Shown: piece after piece, positions 8,902 through 19,800 of the stretch | How positions within the stretch are numbered: the first letter of the stretch is position 1 | Layout of the letters: each line of letters begins with the position of its first letter | Source of the DNA: Escherichia phage KKP 3715 | Sequence record: OR067834.1 | Strand: one strand, 5' to 3' | Length of the DNA: 64,000 bases | Made by a program: the position numbers and the translations under genes | Notes under the pieces: model-generated | Seen by the model: only the letters and a program-made list of their open reading frames with translations | Databases searched by the model: none | Told to the model about the DNA's origin: nothing

Positions 8902-10104
8902 ATGTTAAACTATAACGCCCCAATTGACGGCCAGAAATCTAGCATTGATGGTGCTGGTTCCGACCAGATGAATACCTATTACTGGCTGAAGAAAGCTATT
9001 ATTCAGTCCCGTAAAGACCAGTACTTCATGCCACTGGCTAACACCATTAACATGCCGAAGAACTACGGTAAAACTGTTAAGGTGTATGAGTACGTTCCAC
9101 TGCTTGATGATAAGAATATTAACGATCAGGGTATTGATGCTAATGGTGCTACCATCGTTAATGGTAACCTGTATGGTTCTTCCCGAGACGTTGGTAACAT
9201 CACTTCTAAACTGCCTCTGCTGACAGAGAACGGTGGTCGTGTTAACCGTGTAGGCTTTACTCGTCTGTCTCGTGAAGGTTCCATCCATAAGTTCGGTTTC
9301 TTCTACGAATTTACTCAAGAGTCTCTGGACTTTGATTCTGATGACCAACTGAAAGAACACCTGTCTCGTGAACTGATGAACGGTGCTGTACAGTTGACTG
9401 AAGCTGTTCTCCAGAAAGACCTGTTGGCTGCTGCCGGTACTGTACTGTATGCAGGTGCTGCTACTTCTGATGCTACCATCACTGGTGAAGGTTCTACCCC
9501 GTCCGTAGTTTCTTATAAGAACCTGATGCGTCTTGACCAGATTCTTACTGAGAACCGTACTCCGACCCAGACTACTATCATCACTGGTTCTAAACTCACT
9601 GACACCAAAGTACTTGGTGGTACTCGTGTAATGTACGTTGGTTCTGAACTGGTTCCTGAGCTGAAAGCGATGAAAGACCTGTTCGGTAACAAAGCATTCA
9701 TCGAGGTTCAGCACTATGCTGATGCTGGTACTCTGATGAATGGTGAGATTGGTTGTATCGACAAGTTCCGTATTATCCAGGTTCCTGAGATGCTGCATTG
9801 GGCAGGTGCTGGTGCTCAGGTTACTACTAACCCAGGTTATCGTTCTTCTATGGTTAGTGGTCAGGAACACTACGACGTATTCCCGATGCTGGTAGTTGGT
9901 GATGACTCCTTCTCTACCATTGGCTTCCAGACTGATGGTAAGTCTGTTAAGTTCTCCATCATGACTAAGATGCCTGGTCGAGAAACTGCTGACCGTAATG
10001 ACCCGTATGGTGAGACTGGTTTCAGTTCCATCAAGTGGTACTACGGTATCCTGGTTAAACGTCCAGAACGTCTGGCTCTGATTAAGACTGTTGCTCCTCT
10101 GTAA
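8902..10104 (+). CDS. major capsid protein
   Basis: 400 aa (N4 major coat protein is about 400 aa as recalled); strong AGGA RBS; highly biased codon usage producing a long spurious antisense ORF; followed by hairpins/terminator. Confidence 0.65.
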
Positions 10105-10171
10105 TAGTCCTAAATAAAACAAGGGGGACTTATGTCCCCCTCTTAATAAAACTAGTTGAACCACAGGAAAT

Positions 10172-10813
10172 ATGAACATGAGCATTAACGATAAACCGAC
10201 CACTGACGTAGAACTGGACGTACAGGGCAACGAAGATACCGTTAACGATATTGCAATGCCTAGCGAACTTGAAGTTCTTAAGCAACGTGCAACGTTGATG
10301 AATATTAAGTTCTCTAACAACATCTCCGTTGAGAAGCTCCGTGAGAAGATTGAAGCTGCACAAGCAAAAGATGAACCAGAAGTAAAAGAATCAGCAGTTA
10401 ATCCTTTGGGTGAAAAACAGGAAGCTGGTGTTAAGAAAATGACCCTGGGTCAGAAGATTCGTGCAGAACAGACTCGACTGATTCGTGTACGTATCCAGAA
10501 CCTAGACCCTAAGAAGAAAGACCTGCCGGGTGAGATTATCACCGTAGCTAACGAATATATGGGTACTGTACGTAAGTTTGTTCCATTCGGTGAAGTCACC
10601 GACAATGGTTATCATATTCCGTACTGTATCTATGAGTTCCTTAAAGAGCGTAAGTTCATCAACATTACGACTCGTAAAGGTAAGAATGGCTTACCGGATA
10701 TCCGTGCAACAGAGGCACGTGAGTTCTCCATTGAAGTATTGCCTCCGCTGACTGAAGCAGAATTGACTCAACTGGCTCAAGCACAGATTGCTGCTGGTAG
10801 CCTGAACGATTAA
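10172..10813 (+). CDS. hypothetical virion-module protein
   Basis: 213 aa; AGGAAA RBS; followed by an intrinsic terminator. Confidence 0.45.
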   Translation: MNMSINDKPTTDVELDVQGNEDTVNDIAMPSELEVLKQRATLMNIKFSNNISVEKLREKIEAAQAKDEPEVKESAVNPLGEKQEAGVKKMTLGQKIRAEQTRLIRVRIQNLDPKKKDLPGEIITVANEYMGTVRKFVPFGEVTDNGYHIPYCIYEFLKERKFINITTRKGKNGLPDIRATEAREFSIEVLPPLTEAELTQLAQAQIAAGSLND

Positions 10814-11727: not shown

Positions 11728-14370
11728 ATGGGCTTATTCAGTGGGAAGACCAAAGTATACGTAGCATCCTCTGTCTATAACATGGCAGGGGATATACATA
11801 AGCGCCCAAACTATATGAAGACTGTAGTCATCGGTAAGATTGTTGCTGATACAGGATTCACTATGGCAGACACTATCTCTGATAGTTATCTGAATGGACC
11901 GGGTATTCGTATGCGACTGTTCTCCAGCTGGAGTAAGAACCACTATGATTCAGAAGTTGGTATGGCAGGAGCTTCATTAGGTGTGCTGGCTAAGATTGAC
12001 CCTACTATTATAGAGGGTCAAATTACCCCACCTGCTGGGGAGACTGTCTATGTTCAGGCAGCAGAGATTGGCTTTGCTGACTTTGAGCAATGGTGTGACC
12101 AGTATCTTTATGAGAATGCCCCAAGTCGAATAATGGAGCGATTCGACGTAGACATTGATGAAGATACTAATGAAATTACTATGACCTCCCTTGATGGTGG
12201 TTCTACCATTACATTCACACCTACTAACTTTGAACCAGGTGCTTTGTATCTCTATGCTGATTACACTTTCTATAAGTCCCCAGCTACCAATCCACCGGTA
12301 GTAGGGCCGACTACTGTCTATGATAATGAAGGCGACTTACCATCTACCCTGCTATGGACTACCATCTCAAGTGATACGACAGCTAATACAACCAATCTTA
12401 CTAAGACTATACAGACTCATTCTGTTTACTCTGATGGTAGACCGGATGAAGACAGTACTGTTACTGAACCAAGTGTGGATAACTGGAATTCTTACGTTAA
12501 GGTTTACCGTAGAGGATTTACTGAGAAACCTGATGATGTAACTGTGGTTGTATCTGACAGGGTAATGACTCATACAAAGTTTGGTGAGGTTCAATCTAGC
12601 ACTACTGTAACTACCAATGTTGTTGATTTAGGTGGTGGTGTTACTCGCACAGATACAATCACTACAACTACAGAGACACTGGTTCGTAAGTACTCATCCC
12701 AGACTACCCGTACTGATACTGAGATGACTGCTGTTGGTACACCTAAGATGCTTATCTATAAGCAGAACTCAGGCAACGTTGCACTTGATTCACTGTTTGA
12801 GACTGAAGCTACCGATAACCGATTCTACCCATTCATTCCAATCAGGAATGATAAGCAATGGGTAGAGAATGACCCAATCTACCCCCACTGTAAGAAGGCA
12901 CTCTATAAAGCTACCGGTGGTAAACTCAATAAAGTAGTGACTGAGCTTAAGAAGAATGACGACATAGATGATATCCAATACATCTATGGCACATTCGGTG
13001 TATCTCTTAATACTCCAGAGGATACTGCTAAGGAATACATCTACCGTTTCTTTCAGATGGCTACTGAAGCATTCCCACCTGACCCAACCTACCCTACACT
13101 GGAAGCAGTGATTGCAGGTTATCAGGCAGCAAATGATGCAGTTGATGCATACGTAGAATGGTGGAACAGGCAGGAAGGTCAGGTAGTTGGAACACCTCCT
13201 CCACTACCGGAATACCCTGTCATACCTAAGCGAGAGTTTAGGGTACATAGTAATAAGCAGTACAAGTATGACATGACTATTGGTTGGAACTATGTGTCTG
13301 AAACTACTCATTCTGGTGAAGCATGGTCTGGTGCTAAACAAGGACAACTTCGAGCCAGATATGCAGGGGATATAACTCTTACACGTAAGAACATACGTAC
13401 AGGTGCTAACAAAAAGCTGGAAGTTACCACTACGTTTTATTCTATGCAGGAGTATGAATTGCTTTGGCAGGATGGTAATGACACCTACCGTAAACTTAGG
13501 GTACTGGGTCTGAACCACAACAACAGGGTATATAAAAATAAGTCAGTGAGCATTGATGTTGCCGAAGCAATGGGTGATGCAGAAGAGAGTGGATTCATTA
13601 TTCCACTACACACTAACATCTACCGTTCAATGTCACTGACTCGTAGTACTCAACTGTCTACTGCTTGTTCCTACTTAGTGATGAACTCATATAAGAAGGT
13701 TAAGCAGAAGTGGTATACGACATCTGCCTTTAAGATTGTGGTTGTTGTAGTTGCTGTGGTTGTATCCGTATTCACTATGGGTGCTGGTGGTGCAGGTATT
13801 CTTGGGGCATACGGTGCAGTTGGTGCATCACTTGGTTTTGTTGGATTAGCTGCTGTAATAGTAGGTGCTGTAGCAAACGCTATTGCTGCAATGATTCTGG
13901 TATCTATTATCACTAAAGTATCCACTTCTCTGTTTGGTGATAAGCTAGGCTTTATCATTGCTGCTGTTGCTTCAATGGTAGCTATGAACGTTGGCACTGC
14001 TATGTCTACCGGTACATCCTTATCTACCTTAGCCAGTGAAATGATGAATGCCCAAAACATCATGCAGCTTACCAGTTCAGTAGGTAACGGTATTAGCCAG
14101 TATATTAATGCATCCACGGCTGCTACTATTCAGAAAGCAGAGAATGTAATGCAGCAGTACAATACTGATATGATGGCAATCAATAAGCAGTATGAAGAAA
14201 TGTTTGGTACTGCTGGACAGGGTGTAATTGACCCTATGCAATTTGTGTCAATTGAGTCGATGGATTCTTTCCTCTCACGTACTCTTATGACTGGTTCGGA
14301 TATAGCTGACATGTCTTTAAATATGATTGGAAGCTACTCTGATATGACTCTTAATACAGACCTTGTTTAA
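11728..14370 (+). CDS. large virion protein with C-terminal glycine-rich hydrophobic segments (possible ejection / membrane-insertion protein)
   Basis: 880 aa; the C-terminal ~130 aa contains VVVVVAVVVSVFTMGAGGAGILGAYGAVGASLGFVGLAAVIVGAVANAIAAMILVSI and further hydrophobic stretches. Confidence 0.45.
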   Translation: MGLFSGKTKVYVASSVYNMAGDIHKRPNYMKTVVIGKIVADTGFTMADTISDSYLNGPGIRMRLFSSWSKNHYDSEVGMAGASLGVLAKIDPTIIEGQITPPAGETVYVQAAEIGFADFEQWCDQYLYENAPSRIMERFDVDIDEDTNEITMTSLDGGSTITFTPTNFEPGALYLYADYTFYKSPATNPPVVGPTTVYDNEGDLPSTLLWTTISSDTTANTTNLTKTIQTHSVYSDGRPDEDSTVTEPSVDNWNSYVKVYRRGFTEKPDDVTVVVSDRVMTHTKFGEVQSSTTVTTNVVDLGGGVTRTDTITTTTETLVRKYSSQTTRTDTEMTAVGTPKMLIYKQNSGNVALDSLFETEATDNRFYPFIPIRNDKQWVENDPIYPHCKKALYKATGGKLNKVVTELKKNDDIDDIQYIYGTFGVSLNTPEDTAKEYIYRFFQMATEAFPPDPTYPTLEAVIAGYQAANDAVDAYVEWWNRQEGQVVGTPPPLPEYPVIPKREFRVHSNKQYKYDMTIGWNYVSETTHSGEAWSGAKQGQLRARYAGDITLTRKNIRTGANKKLEVTTTFYSMQEYELLWQDGNDTYRKLRVLGLNHNNRVYKNKSVSIDVAEAMGDAEESGFIIPLHTNIYRSMSLTRSTQLSTACSYLVMNSYKKVKQKWYTTSAFKIVVVVVAVVVSVFTMGAGGAGILGAYGAVGASLGFVGLAAVIVGAVANAIAAMILVSIITKVSTSLFGDKLGFIIAAVASMVAMNVGTAMSTGTSLSTLASEMMNAQNIMQLTSSVGNGISQYINASTAATIQKAENVMQQYNTDMMAINKQYEEMFGTAGQGVIDPMQFVSIESMDSFLSRTLMTGSDIADMSLNMIGSYSDMTLNTDLV

Positions 14371-14839: not shown

Positions 14840-16804
14840 ATGGCTCAAATTACATGGCGTAATGTTGATGCACCTAACTTCTCTGGAGTTGGTGACAGCA
14901 TTCGCACATTTGGCAGCATGATTGGTAACGCCACCTCCGGCTTAAGTGATGCACTGGGTAATTTCCAGAACGCTGCCAAGCAGGAGGCTGGCAATGCCGT
15001 CATGATGAATGCTATGCAGTACCAAGACCCGAATGAATACCGAAATGCTTTGGCATCCGGTGCATTGTTTCAGGGGGTTGACCCTTCACTGGTAAACCAA
15101 CGTACCCTTCAAAACCTGGATGAGCGAGCAGGAACACTACTGACTCAGCAGGGGCAGCAGGGAACCAATGACTACAATGCATATCGCTTTGGTCGTTTAC
15201 AGGATACTAACTCTGCATTAGATAATGCTTCCCCGGCTATTCGTTTACTATCTGAGGCTTATCAGTCCGGTGACCAGAACCGTATTAATGCTGCATTAAG
15301 TCAGACCCGTGATGCACTGTCTGCACTCCCTGCTGACCAGCAATTGGACATGCTTGGTCGTCTTCAAGGTCAGGGTGGTCAGGCTATTAATCAGGCACAG
15401 AACCGTTTTGACTTGGGTGTGGCTCAACGTAATGATGCCGATAGTCAGGCAGCTATGGGTGTAATGTCACAGATTACCCGTGGTGCTGAGAACCCCAATG
15501 ATGCCCGTCTGTTGGCTGAAGCATATAGTAAGAACCTGTCCCCGGTTGCACAGGCACGTTTGCAGGGATTACTGGCTAATGCTTACCCGGGTGTGTACGG
15601 TAACAATGTTGGTGCTACGTCTGCTCCGGGTACTGCTGGTACTCGTCAGGGTTCCCCTTACGATGTTACTTACCAGTTTGCTGGTACATCTACTCCTATT
15701 ACTCAAATGAGTATTGGTGATGTAATTAAACACCAGGATGGTATGAAGACGAACCAGGGTGCTTCACCTGTTGGTGCATTCCAGATTAACCAAGCTACTC
15801 TGAAAGACTTCGCTCCCAAAGTTCTTGGTTCAGATTGGCAAAGCCAGCCACTTTCTCCCGAGAACCAGGATAAGATTGGTAAGGCTATCTTTGAGGCCCG
15901 TAAGAATGGCAACCTTAAAGATACCTGGGCTGCTCTGCCTAACTCTACCCCAGGTGCTTATAAGGATATGACTTGGGAACAGATTAAACCTGTTATTGCC
16001 CAAGCTGAGGTGGGGGCTGACCCACTTGCTATGGTTCAGAATAATCAAGGTAATCAGGCAGTATCTACTCTGGCTCAGGGTATGATTGGTACTCGTTCTA
16101 TGCAGGATAACACCGGTAGTCTTAACACCGACTTCCTTGGTACTGTCACTGATAATACCCCAGTAGGTGAGATTGCTAACCGTCTGTTGGAAGGTGATTT
16201 TAAAGGTGCTGACCGTAACTGGGTACTGAACCGACTGAATGATATTTCTCAACGAGGGAATATGTCACCAGCTATGGCTGCTGCTGTTATGCAACGTGCA
16301 CAGACGGGTGTACCGGAAGGTTACATTAGCCGTGCTATTGATGCAGTTAACCCATTCATTACCAATGAAGCCGGTAATGGTATGCGTCTTAATGACCGTC
16401 AGGTAGAACAGTTAATCGAGGGTGTGAAACGGGGAGAGCCACTGGAAGGTAGTGTACGTAACCTTGGTCGTGCTCAGGCTATGCAGAACATTCAGGCAGC
16501 ACAGACTGCATATGATGCTGCTGTAGCTGCACTGACAAATACCCAGAATAAGATTAACACCGGACAAACTGGTCTTACTGCACTGTTACCTGCACGACAG
16601 GAGGCTGTTACTAAAGCTGCTGCAATGCTCCAAGCTGCACAGGCACAAGTACAGGCTGACCCAGCTAACCTGGCTCCAAGAGGTTTCCAGTCACAGTCTA
16701 GTGTGGACAGGGCACGAGCTAAGGAAGATGAAGAACGTGCTGCACGATACTTACGTCAGGCACAAGGACTGCCTGAGTATATGCAACCCAGACAAAATCG
16801 GTAA
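14840..16804 (+). CDS. virion protein with lytic-transglycosylase-like (SLT-like) segment
   Basis: 654 aa; internal segment VIKHQDGMKTNQGASPVGAFQINQATL resembles the SLT family pattern around the catalytic Glu-Ser and the GLMQ motif; rest is Gln/Ala/Asn-rich. Confidence 0.45.
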   Translation: MAQITWRNVDAPNFSGVGDSIRTFGSMIGNATSGLSDALGNFQNAAKQEAGNAVMMNAMQYQDPNEYRNALASGALFQGVDPSLVNQRTLQNLDERAGTLLTQQGQQGTNDYNAYRFGRLQDTNSALDNASPAIRLLSEAYQSGDQNRINAALSQTRDALSALPADQQLDMLGRLQGQGGQAINQAQNRFDLGVAQRNDADSQAAMGVMSQITRGAENPNDARLLAEAYSKNLSPVAQARLQGLLANAYPGVYGNNVGATSAPGTAGTRQGSPYDVTYQFAGTSTPITQMSIGDVIKHQDGMKTNQGASPVGAFQINQATLKDFAPKVLGSDWQSQPLSPENQDKIGKAIFEARKNGNLKDTWAALPNSTPGAYKDMTWEQIKPVIAQAEVGADPLAMVQNNQGNQAVSTLAQGMIGTRSMQDNTGSLNTDFLGTVTDNTPVGEIANRLLEGDFKGADRNWVLNRLNDISQRGNMSPAMAAAVMQRAQTGVPEGYISRAIDAVNPFITNEAGNGMRLNDRQVEQLIEGVKRGEPLEGSVRNLGRAQAMQNIQAAQTAYDAAVAALTNTQNKINTGQTGLTALLPARQEAVTKAAAMLQAAQAQVQADPANLAPRGFQSQSSVDRARAKEDEERAARYLRQAQGLPEYMQPRQNR

Positions 16805-16837: not shown

Positions 16838-16898
16838 AACTGGCTTACTGTAGAGTAAGTTACCTATATACGATATAAGTTTGAACAGGAAACATGCT

Positions 16899-19800
16899 AT
16901 GTCAACATTTGACCGTCTGGCAGGTTTCGCAGACAGCATCACTAATGCTAAGCAAGTCGATGTCTCTACTGCAACCTCTCAGAAGCAAGCTGCACAAGGG
17001 CAAAGCCCTTTCCAATTAACCCCAGAGAATGCTTACAATCTCCAGACTGGACGAGTAGGTAATCTTGGAATCGGTGCATTCGAACCAGATTCACTTCAGG
17101 CAGATTTCACTCAAGCCTCCCCATTAGAAATCATTAATAAATACGGTAATGAGCAAGGTTTACAGATTCTTAATAGCCGAGCTAATGCTGCTGATGTTGT
17201 ACGTCAGGACTTATCTAAACAGCGTACTAACGCAGAAGCATTTGGCGATACTCTTTCTGGTGTTGGTCTTGGTGTTGCTAATACCCTTGGGGGCATTGCT
17301 GCTCTTGGCACAGGTCTGGTCAATGATAATGCCGGGGCAACCATTGCTTCCGGGATGGATTGGTTGAATGAAGGCGTACACAATCTCCAGTCTGATGCAC
17401 TGAATGCTACCCGTAAAGTTGTTCAGAATCAGAACCAGATTTCTGCTCAAAAGAACCAGAAACTCTATGAAGAAGACATCAAAAATGGGGAGAGCGATTT
17501 GGTTGCCTCCTTGTCTCGCATTGGTCGTGACGCTTTCGATTCTGTTGCTAATACACTTGATAATGGTATGGCTGCTTCCGACGGACTGAGTGAAGGGGTT
17601 GGTTCCCTCTTTACTGGTGGTCCACTTATTCGTGGTGTATCTGCACTTGGTAAAGTAATGGTAGGTGGTGATAAAGCTGTTAAGGGTATTACCTTAGCTG
17701 CTGGGTTAGGTTCACGCCCTGCACAGGTTGCATTGTCTGCTGGTCGTGTTGCTGCACCTGCTATTGCAATCGGTGGTATGGAAGCTGGTGGTGCATACCA
17801 ACAGACTGCTTCTGAAATCATGAAGATGTCCCATCAAGAATTGGCAAGCAAGTCTCCTGTTTACCAACAACATATTGCTGATGGATTATCCCCTGATGAA
17901 GCACGTCGTCAGACTGCATCTGAAACAGGTATCATTGCTGCTGGCTTAACTGCTCCAGTTGCTGCTGCTACCGGCCCATTGGTATCTCGCTTTGAACTTA
18001 ATCCACTTAAGGTAGGTTCACTTGCAGGTGCTGGTTCTAATATGCTGCGTGAGACTGTAGAGGAAGGTATTCAGTCAGGCTTTGGTCAATATGCCCAGAA
18101 CCGTGCAATCAAGGAAAATGTTGATGCATCCCGTGACGTTCTCAAAGGAGTCGGTGAGCAAGCAGGTCTGGGTGCACTTTATGGCTTCGGTAGTGCTGGT
18201 GTTGCTCAAGCTCCTGGTGCAACTGTTAAAGCTGCCGGTGCTGCTGCTGGACCTGCTCTTCGTACTACTCTGGCTGGTGCTTCTCTGGTTGGTAAAACAT
18301 TAGCAAAAGCTGCATCTCCTCTTACTAATATCCTGGTTCAACGTGGTGAAGAAGTTGCTAAGCGTAATGAACAAGCATCCCCTGTAGCTGATGCTACGGT
18401 TAATGCTGCTGCACAGGAAGCTGCTGCTCAGGCAGAGCAAGCACAGGCAACTGTACAGGAAGCAGTAGATGCAATGGATATCTCTCCAGAAGAGAAAGCT
18501 GCTGCTACCCAATATGCTGCTGACTTAACTCAGGCAATGAAGTTTGATCCAGTAGAATTGGAACAAGCTAATCCAACAATCCGTGAAGCTGTTTCTGGTT
18601 CCACTAACCGTGTAGAAGCTATTCAGAAGATGGCTGACCTGGTTAATACTGCCGAAGACCCTAACGTTCAAATGGAAGCAGCAATCCAGATGTATGACAA
18701 TATCATGTCCATGGATAGCTTCATTAACCGTGACCCGGGTGCTCTGGCTAATCTGGAACAGGGTTCCCCTGCTGCTGCAATTGTAGACCAGTTCTCTGGC
18801 CTGATGGCTAACGTACAGAATACCCCTAAAGTACTTCGTGCATTCCGTGCTATTCATTCCATGATTCAGGAACAGGCTGAAGCAGGTAAGCTGAAAGCTA
18901 CTGAAGAAGCTAACCAAGCCCAGGCAAATAACATTGCTATGGCTGCTGATGTATCTCCAGAAGTGCTGGATGCAGATTCAGTGAACATGGTTCTGAAACA
19001 TGCAAGTGAAGGTAAGATTACATTAGGGAATCGTCAACGTGCTGCCCTGCAATCTGCTGCTGCCTTGTTACAGGGTGCACGTGAGTTCGACGCTAAAGCA
19101 GAAGAACTAGGCTTACGTCCTCAAGACATTGTTAGTAAACAGATTAAAACCGATGAGTCTCGTTCTAATGAAGGACAGTACTCTGCGTTGCAACATGCGA
19201 AACGCATTCGTTCTGCGTATAACTCTGGTAACTTCGATTTGGCCTCCGCTTATCTGAGCGACTTTATGAAGTTCGCCCAGCACATGCAGAATAAGGTCGG
19301 AGCGTTGAATGAGCATTTGATTTCGGGGAATGCGGATAAGAATAAGTCTGTTCATTATCAGGCTCTCTCGCCTTCCCGTGAATGGGTACGTAGTCGTACT
19401 GGCCTCGGTGTCAATCCTTACGATACCAAGTCTGTTAAGTTTGCCCAGCAAGTAGGACTGGAGGCCAAAACCGTAGCTGATATTGCTAATGCACTTGCTA
19501 CGGCTTACCCGGAGCTTAATGTTTCTCATGTGAAAGTTACCTCGTTGGATTCACGTCTGAACAAGCCAGCTGCCCAGGTAGTTAAAGAGTTCCGTCAAGG
19601 TGGTCTTGATGCCACTCAGTCTCAACAGACTAATGAACCAGTGAATCAGGTTGATGAATCTCCTGCACCAGTGCAAGAGGACACTACTACTGTACAGCCT
19701 AAAGCTAAACCAGTGGTAGAAAATAAGACTGCTCCTACTAAGGAGACTAGTCCAAAAACAGAAGAAGTCTCTACTACTAAGTCTGAAACAGTAGAAGCTA

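Follow-up and report, generated by a model that had tools for sequence, protein, structure and literature searches.

A lambda-lysozyme-like domain lacking the canonical catalytic helix is predicted in gp51, the putative periplasmic-tunnel protein of a G7C-like coliphage

Background

Podophage ejectosomes have to traverse the murein layer, and T7 uses the SLT domain of gp16 for this; T7 mutants in the gp16 transglycosylase are defective on stationary-phase or low-temperature cells. Peptidoglycan-degrading modules on podophage ejected proteins include this N-terminal SLT domain and the lysozyme domains of phiKMV-type internal virion proteins (PMC4819975); the T7 module, part of IVP-D (gp16), is a canonical GH23 domain with a catalytic Glu. 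Proteins of the IVP-C type sometimes house tail lysozyme domains as well (Hardies et al., PMC4819975), and some N4-like virion RNA polymerases (vRNAPs) carry lysozyme fusions (Iyer et al., PMC5512222).

N4 gp51, earlier proposed as an analogue of T7 gp15 (IVP-C) (Hardies et al., PMC4819975), is an oligomeric protein that is ejected, refolds upon ejection, and assembles as a decamer into a periplasmic tunnel like that of T7 gp15 (Bellis et al., Nat Commun 2026, PMC13434306). The cryo-EM construct covered residues 1–359, of which only 52–255 were ordered, and its authors view peptidoglycan hydrolysis as supplied in trans (PMC13434306). In the literature searched we found no description of the gp51 domain presented here, its family, or its missing helix, and no report of muralytic activity of the N4 virion or of gp51 activity. 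One GenBank record, MT682708, names its gp51 orthologue “lysozyme containing protein”.

The described enzyme against which this domain is compared below is the endolysin R of phage lambda, a GH104 lytic transglycosylase (PDB 1AM7; CDD cd00736) with its catalytic Glu19 in the N-terminal helix AFLDMLAWSEGT. Engineered circular permutants of T4 lysozyme, in which the N-terminal helix A was moved to the C-terminus, provide a precedent for a C-terminal helix carrying the catalytic Glu.

Results

Genomic context of gp51

The window, a 64,000-nucleotide stretch of Escherichia phage KKP 3715 (OR067834.1), belongs to a G7C-like (N4-family) coliphage and has a G+C content of 43%. The gene at 14,840–16,804 shares 95% DNA identity with Gamaleyavirus genomes, among them that of Escherichia phage vB_EcoP_G7C. 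On the + strand, the order of products of 880, 154, 654, and 3456 aa is that of N4 gp53-gp52-gp51-gp50 (vRNAP):

11,728–14,370, + strand: gp53 homologue, 880 aa, predicted tail plug (ORF list, PHROG search, N4 synteny; PMC13434306)
14,363–14,827, + strand: gp52 homologue, 154 aa, predicted outer-membrane ejection protein (ORF list, PHROG search, N4 synteny)
14,840–16,804, + strand: gp51 homologue, the 654-aa ORF (matches to PHROG 6126 and PDB 11mn_A; function of N4 gp51 from PMC13434306)
16,881–27,251, + strand: gp50 homologue, predicted giant vRNAP, 3456 aa (ORF list, DNA similarity, N4 synteny)

The 654-aa ORF is matched end to end (residues 1–653) by PHROG 6126, “virion structural protein”, and its residues 1–357 match N4 gp51 (PDB 11mn_A, “66 kDa protein”) with E = 3.6e-129; both matches agree with the sequence-only reading, which had described a 654-aa virion protein. 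Homology identifies the ORF as the predicted orthologue of N4 gp51, that is, an ejected periplasmic-tunnel protein and T7 gp15/IVP-C analogue. By the same orthology, we infer that the window’s gp51 would be packaged in the virion, ejected, and assembled into a decameric channel.

A conserved domain in the middle of gp51

A predicted domain of ~125 aa (aa ~268–395) lies mid-protein in gp51, with the following features:

15,599–15,655, + strand: Gly/Ala/Thr/Pro-rich linker, aa 254–272, at the place of the lambda R catalytic helix (column counts, hhalign)
15,641–16,024, + strand: predicted lambda-lysozyme-type (GH104-like) domain, aa 268–395 (profile search, conservation, hhalign; AF2 model of aa 286–400)
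15,722–15,802, + strand: motif VIKHQDGMKTNQGASPVGAFQINQATL, aa 295–321, which runs from the last part of helix 1 through a loop into the GxYQ strand (translation, AF2 model, GH104 alignment)
15,737–15,739, + strand: codon of D300, which stands opposite the catalytic Glu of Slt70 in an ungapped alignment, is unconserved, and pairs with R51 of lambda R
15,773–15,784, + strand: G312-A-F-Q315, the invariant GxYQ, common to lambda R (GRYQ) and, more loosely, to SLT (GLMQ)
15,965–16,015, + strand: last helix, aa 376–392, TWEQIKPVIAQAEVG, which ends in the invariant E390 (codon 16,007–16,009); candidate relocated catalytic helix

An exhaustive HMMER search with aa 268–437 returned 431 representatives of clusters at 50% identity. 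Nearly all of them are proteins of 550–800 aa with the match mid-protein. Since the motif lies in a domain conserved in all of these, chance cannot account for it. The cultured phages that carry the domain all have N4-like genomes of ~70–76 kb (134–137 records), and their hosts are Escherichia, Klebsiella, Shigella, Erwinia, Achromobacter, Burkholderia, Stenotrophomonas, Xanthomonas, and some Pseudomonas. Homologue searches with the domain alone gave one fragment and with the full protein only homologues of at least 68% identity, and hmmsearch of the gp51 family profile against PDB sequences found nothing beyond N4 gp51. In 151 aligned sequences, G312, Q315, T320, Q343, and E390 were invariant or nearly so, and G307, S309, G330, W333, L359, W363, L366, and G372 were conserved above ~85–90%. 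The AF2 model of aa 286–400 had a pLDDT of 82.7 (42.6 for a single-sequence model of aa 241–437), and in BFVD the domain model matched myophage baseplate-hub and gp5-like proteins with probabilities of 0.96–1.0.

Scans of the whole protein against Pfam, NCBIfam, and PHROGs gave no informative domain match. An NCBIfam RipA match at aa 506–626 was far under its cut-off, and we attribute it to coiled-coil composition.

The domain resembles lambda R rather than SLT

The sequence-only reading had placed a motif parallel to the SLT pattern at 15,706–15,800. The peptide is there, at 15,722–15,802; the start first given lies ~16 nt too far upstream and out of frame. The parallel itself extends to a GLMQ-type motif, the Thr that follows, and a downstream (D)PxxN-type motif: G312-x-(Y/F)-Q315 and T320 are invariant, as is Q343 of P340-E-N-Q343-D. 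These features do not define SLT, as they are common to other lysozyme-clan families. The catalytic Glu(-Ser) expected where a helix ends, ~18 residues before GLMQ, is absent, the equivalent positions being Q299/D300. Against the isolated segment, Pfam SLT (PF01464) stayed below threshold (E = 0.03; 14.3 bits for a gathering score of 21.3), with a match spanning only GLMQ to motif III. Across 68 diverse members, the sole recurrent Pfam matches, all sub-threshold, were SLT (10/68, best 4e-4) and the Rpf-like Transglycosylas family (15/68). With hhalign, a five-member SLT alignment (Slt70, EmtA, MltD, MltC, and T7 gp16) gave a probability of 5–6%. Membership in SLT/GH23 was rejected on the Pfam E-value and on this comparison with a real SLT alignment.

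Compared by hhalign with a GH104 profile built from ten phage sequences (35–100% identity to lambda R), the gp51 family scored 96.2% (E = 2e-9), and 97.1% (E = 5e-11, 95 columns) with upstream sequence included, which paired aa ~268–376 with lambda R 27–137. These E-values are those of single pairwise profile comparisons, with a small GH104 profile picked after the resemblance had been noticed and with SLT and GH104 as the only families compared. The resemblance became decisive only once the family profile was used: the single lambda R sequence gave 30% in hhalign, and BLASTP of the gp51 segment against lambda R alone was weak (E = 0.039). Pfam-A, which has no GH104 model, leaves lambda R itself undetected at E ≤ 1, which accounts for the empty Pfam result for the gp51 domain.

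The alignment pairs SPYDVTYQF with GYDVIVGG, IGDVIKHQ with FTDYSDHP, ASPVGAFQ with STGAGRYQ, LSPENQD with FSPKSQD, and WAALP…PGAY with WASLPGAGYG, so that the likeness to lambda R 27–137 takes in its GYDV strand, FTDYSDHP segment, STGAGRYQ, FSPxSQD, and WASLPGAGYGQ. The GH104 core motifs are present as GAFQ (312–315), PENQD (340–344), and WAALP (363–367), and the G, Q, Q, W set shared with lambda R is invariant or above 90%. On this profile evidence, the gp51 domain is homologous to lambda-R-type (GH104) lysozyme. It differs from lambda R in lacking the N-terminal Glu19 helix, in a 9-residue insertion of the “TSTPITQMS” type, and in its setting, within a 654-aa ejected tunnel protein and not in a free endolysin.

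The canonical catalytic helix is missing

The gp51 family as a whole has no counterpart of the lambda R N-terminal helix, and the aligned part of lambda R opens with residue 27. In its place, the linker (aa 254–272) has conserved glycines at 264, 267, and 271 and no conserved acid. The “ARMLAEGT” segment farther upstream in N4 was considered as a lambda-type catalytic helix and rejected, being unconserved and without profile support; a profile of aa 205–272 against the GH104 N-terminus gave 0.2% in hhalign.

The residues that the sequence-only reading had put in the catalytic position, Gln-Asp for Glu-Ser, fare no better as a replacement. The ungapped Slt70 alignment sets Glu478 against D300, not Q299, and the GH104 alignment pairs H298-Q299-D300 with the non-catalytic H49-P50-R51 loop of lambda R. 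Among the 151 aligned sequences, position 300 is N in 61, D in 23, E in 16, and Q in 10, and in Klebsiella-phage homologues of 69% identity it is A, T, S, Q, or V; position 299 is Gly in most members (G 87, Q 57). An SLT that uses Asp is thus disfavoured, as residue 300 is D/E only in some clades and residue 299 is mostly Gly. Acidic residues make up 76% at position 294, ~50% at 297, and ~26% at 300, and none of these is invariant. Alignment across the family establishes, at the level of sequence, that the canonical catalytic helix is gone from the domain and that the cleft residues and one Glu are absolutely conserved.

An invariant glutamate in the last helix

That Glu is E390, the family’s only invariant acid (264/264 homologues, down to ~30% identity). 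It closes the C-terminal side of the last helix, where it is followed by V/S/T and G (E-(V/S/T)-G; among others EVG 157, ESG 35, ETG 12). GH104 members, in contrast, are variable at the collinear position, with E, D, K, A, T, or L.

We built a permuted construct in which aa 376–392 were moved ahead of aa 268–375, the order of lambda R. Against GH104, the alignment grew from 65–69 to 104 columns (lambda R 12–133), KPVIAQAEVG paired with LDMLAWSEGT, and E390 fell on Glu19. The score was 68.1, compared with 62.4–62.8 for the native, core-only, and reversed-helix constructs, and was reached by 4 of 150 column-shuffled helices (p about 0.03) and by none of 31 decoy helices from the same proteins. 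A similar swap against the SLT alignment raised the probability from 5.7% to 32% (reversed control, 4.7%). Pfam scans of the permuted sequences showed no change, which is uninformative because Pfam has no GH104 model. The apparent likeness between the last gp51 helix and the catalytic helix of GH104 is specific but modest.

Related proteins in other phages

The nearest relative found with the canonical order is WEM34326 of Xanthomonas phage X1, a 200-kb non-schitovirus, a hypothetical protein of 741 aa whose gene adjoins the baseplate hub gene. It matches the gp51 family at 98.5% (E = 1.5e-15), with the match starting exactly at “GYD”, and has the gp51-type insertion (“KPVSQMTFGEV”), SSAVGRYQF, and ENQDKLA in common with it. 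Unlike gp51, the X1 protein retains the catalytic helix at its N-terminus (…IAAGEAG…GYD), and its residue at the position of E390 is Gln. Its N-terminal helix FERDLLNQIAAGEAG aligns with QRKAFLDMLAWSEGT of lambda, Glu on Glu19 (96.8%, E = 3e-10, 117 columns). X1 is thus a natural intermediate, a gp51-type core with a canonical helix, and bears out the missing-helix reading of gp51.

In the schitoviruses ZC08 and ZC03, the gene slot of gp51 is occupied by gp16, an 831-aa virion protein named “peptidoglycan hydrolase”, and the order in ZC08 (vRNAP, hydrolase gene, 150-aa gene, ~900-aa gene) is as in the window. Like gp51, ZC08 gp16 has a lysozyme-superfamily domain mid-protein after a Gly/Ser/Thr-rich linker; unlike that of gp51, it is assigned by Pfam to canonical SLT/GH23 (E = 2e-18), with ES…GLMQ…AYN intact. 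Outside the domain, gp51 and ZC08 gp16 share no similarity by BLASTP, so the equivalence of the two is one of synteny only. Compared with T7, where the module is on gp16, the gp51 module would be on the gp15/IVP-C analogue, is GH104-like, and has no canonical helix.

N4 gp51 has the same domain at ~270–397, with SAYDTT at 274, GAYQ at 314–317, and E392 corresponding to E390 of the window. The N4 cryo-EM construct (1–359) stops within it, and residues past 255 are disordered (PMC13434306). The position of the construct’s end inside the domain may explain both this disorder and the domain’s escape from notice.

Discussion

We propose that aa ~268–395 of gp51 form a GH104-like peptidoglycan-engaging domain between the N-terminal tunnel “leg” and a C-terminal helical part. 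Its ancestor would be a canonical lytic-transglycosylase domain like that of X1, from which the N-terminal Glu helix was lost; the sugar-cleft residues (GxYQ, T320, the Q343-D pair, and W363-A-x-L-P) and E390 are kept invariant. After ejection, the gp51 tunnel would cross the periplasm and present a ring of these domains at the murein layer, gripping glycan strands. We consider this domain identity and the targeting of peptidoglycan highly probable; the location at the murein layer and the binding of peptidoglycan are inferences. The ring would most likely also cleave glycans by lytic transglycosylation, E390 taking over the general-acid role of the lost Glu19, and ten copies around the tunnel would cut a murein hole for the passage of the 383-kDa vRNAP and the genome. 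We hold catalysis through E390, and with it the full explanation, only tentatively, at a little less than even odds. That gp51 is a naturally rearranged lytic transglycosylase with its general-acid Glu moved to E390 (E392 in N4), and so the “missing” hydrolase of the N4 ejectosome, is a plausible suggestion that we would not yet call probable.

The domain may instead be a pseudoenzyme that lost its catalytic helix for good and serves as a glycan-binding anchor or orienter of the tunnel in murein, with a structural E390 and with cleavage left to host enzymes or another virion protein. The absence of the Glu19 helix across the family and of any invariant acid upstream fits such a role, as does the conservation of the cleft residues, which a binding module would need. 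The N4 authors also place hydrolysis in trans (PMC13434306), and in the A-1(L) hub paper only the endoglucanase and peptidase domains, not the lysozyme-named domain, are reported to be hydrolytic. A Glu that is invariant in 264 homologues, at a helix C-terminus before small residues, would however be unusual if purely structural beside a disordered linker; in the permuted test it aligns with the catalytic Glu, the X1 protein is complementary (N-terminal Glu present, Gln at the 390 position), and the syntenic ZC08 protein retains a catalytic SLT domain. We favour catalysis by E390 over binding alone, which we regard as a realistic but lesser possibility. A further variant would complete the active site in trans, with the catalytic helix coming from elsewhere in gp51, from a neighbouring protomer, or from gp52/gp53, so that the enzyme is active only in the assembled ejectosome. 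Exactly one structural element is absent from the domain, gp51 forms oligomers and changes its fold upon ejection (PMC13434306), and a lambda-like “ARMLAEGT / ARLLAEAYS” occurs ~45 residues upstream in N4 and G7C-type proteins. This upstream segment is nevertheless not conserved in the family (position 227 is E in 37/137) and belongs to the part of N4 gp51 that was resolved as the leg fold (PMC13434306), and hhalign shows no GH104-like N-terminal helix upstream of the domain (0.2%); on this evidence from gp51, we consider a split enzyme highly improbable.

The active enzyme of the sequence-only reading, a divergent SLT (GH23) in which Glu-Ser became Gln299-Asp300 and Asp300 is the catalytic acid, has several points in its favour: an ungapped alignment from the common “SPVGA” sets Slt70 Glu478 and the ZC08 Glu against D300, the residue is D or E in the Gamaleyavirus and N4 clades, the AF2 helix of aa 292–303 ends near it, and Pfam SLT matches below threshold. 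Against it stand the variability of residue 300 even in close relatives, the predominance of Gly at 299, the profile support of 5–6% for SLT versus 97% for GH104, and the placing of HQD on the HPR loop of lambda R; we judge it very unlikely. The observation behind that reading is confirmed in part, and its interpretation is supported in part. We give the least credence of all to an absence of lysozyme kinship, in which a family-specific helical tunnel-protein domain would carry a chance or convergent motif. Three concordant profile-profile results (96–98.5%, E 1e-9 to 1e-15), one of them with the independent bridging sequence of X1, the invariant residues common to GH104, and the BFVD matches all speak against it, and the negative Pfam result carries no weight, since Pfam-A misses lambda R.

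If E390 is indeed the catalytic acid, gp51 would be a natural case of catalytic-residue relocation, or of circular permutation, in a lysozyme fold. The T4 lysozyme permutants were engineered in a GH24 enzyme, whereas the gp51 rearrangement is natural and hypothetical, and, unlike those permutants, it may be a relocation of the residue onto the existing last helix and not a true permutation. The case also shows how such domains slip past routine annotation, with Pfam-A missing lambda R too. The domain occupies exactly the part that was truncated and disordered in the structural study of N4 (PMC13434306), and it could be the cell-wall cutter recently said to be absent from N4-like phages. An active domain would represent a new architecture within the lysozyme fold and a virion-derived candidate for an enzybiotic module; an inactive one would be a clear case of a lysozyme converted to a murein anchor.

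Limits and loop variation of the lysozyme-like domain

Window positions 15641-16024, within the 654-aa homologue of N4 gp51, correspond to N4 gp51 residues ~270-397. The published N4 deltaC-gp51 construct used for cryo-EM (PDB 11mn, residues 1-359) stops midway through the lysozyme-like domain, at '…ARKNG|NLKSTW…'. The disorder past residue 255 in that structure may arise because the construct cuts through this domain. Among close homologues, residue 300 and the three positions that follow it vary together (aa 300-303, window 15737-15748): Gamaleyavirus/N4-type proteins have (D/E)-G-M-K, and KP8-type Klebsiella phages have (A/S/T/V)-N-M-I. The pattern suggests two alternative local solutions for the loop.

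Profile matches and annotation

Lambda endolysin R (L001:394-870, the lambda R locus) matched zero Pfam-A families at E<=1, and GH104-type domains are therefore invisible to Pfam-based annotation. One NCBIfam model gave a sub-threshold match (23.7 bits, cut-off 625) in the 654-aa protein:

16355-16717 (aa 506-626), helical C-terminal part: RipA NlpC/P60 model

We set aside a peptidase at this position and read the match as coiled-coil composition.

Labels for the gene (window 14840-16804) and its GenBank orthologues were inconsistent between records. RefSeq uses the name 'virion structural protein', MT682708 has 'lysozyme containing protein' and OY979416 has 'RNA polymerase'; the records of phages Bp4 and Uz-1 divide the gene among three CDS.

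Gene starts and overlaps

The neighbouring vRNAP ORF, as called mechanically, starts at TTG 16881; translation may really begin at an ATG six codons further on (MSTFDRLAGF…), the two candidate starts lying within window 16881-16901. For gp52, the ORF begins at TTG 14363 and has 8 nt (14363-14370) in common with the gp53 ORF, up to the gp53 stop. Two ORFs on opposite strands overlap nearly exactly in the late-gene block:

8902-10104, plus strand: 400-aa ORF
8905-10323, minus strand: 472-aa ORF, probably a shadow ORF

Related lysozyme domains in other phages

ELBI_18 of Anabaena phage Elbi (L016), an A-1(L) gp15-type hub, carries a lambda-R-like lysozyme domain (35% identity) with 'IASKEAAPG' at the site of lambda Glu19; the A-1(L) paper reported hydrolysis for the endoglucanase and peptidase domains only. 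Xanthomonas phage X1, a 200-kb phage, encodes a 741-aa 'hypothetical protein' (L018:811-3036; OQ427096 85502-87727) adjoining the baseplate hub gene, in which a lambda-type lysozyme domain in canonical order is combined with gp51-type features. Since this domain is accompanied by a long, Ala/Gly-rich N-terminal half that is probably membrane-associated, the X1 protein is likely to serve as a tail or ejection lysin.
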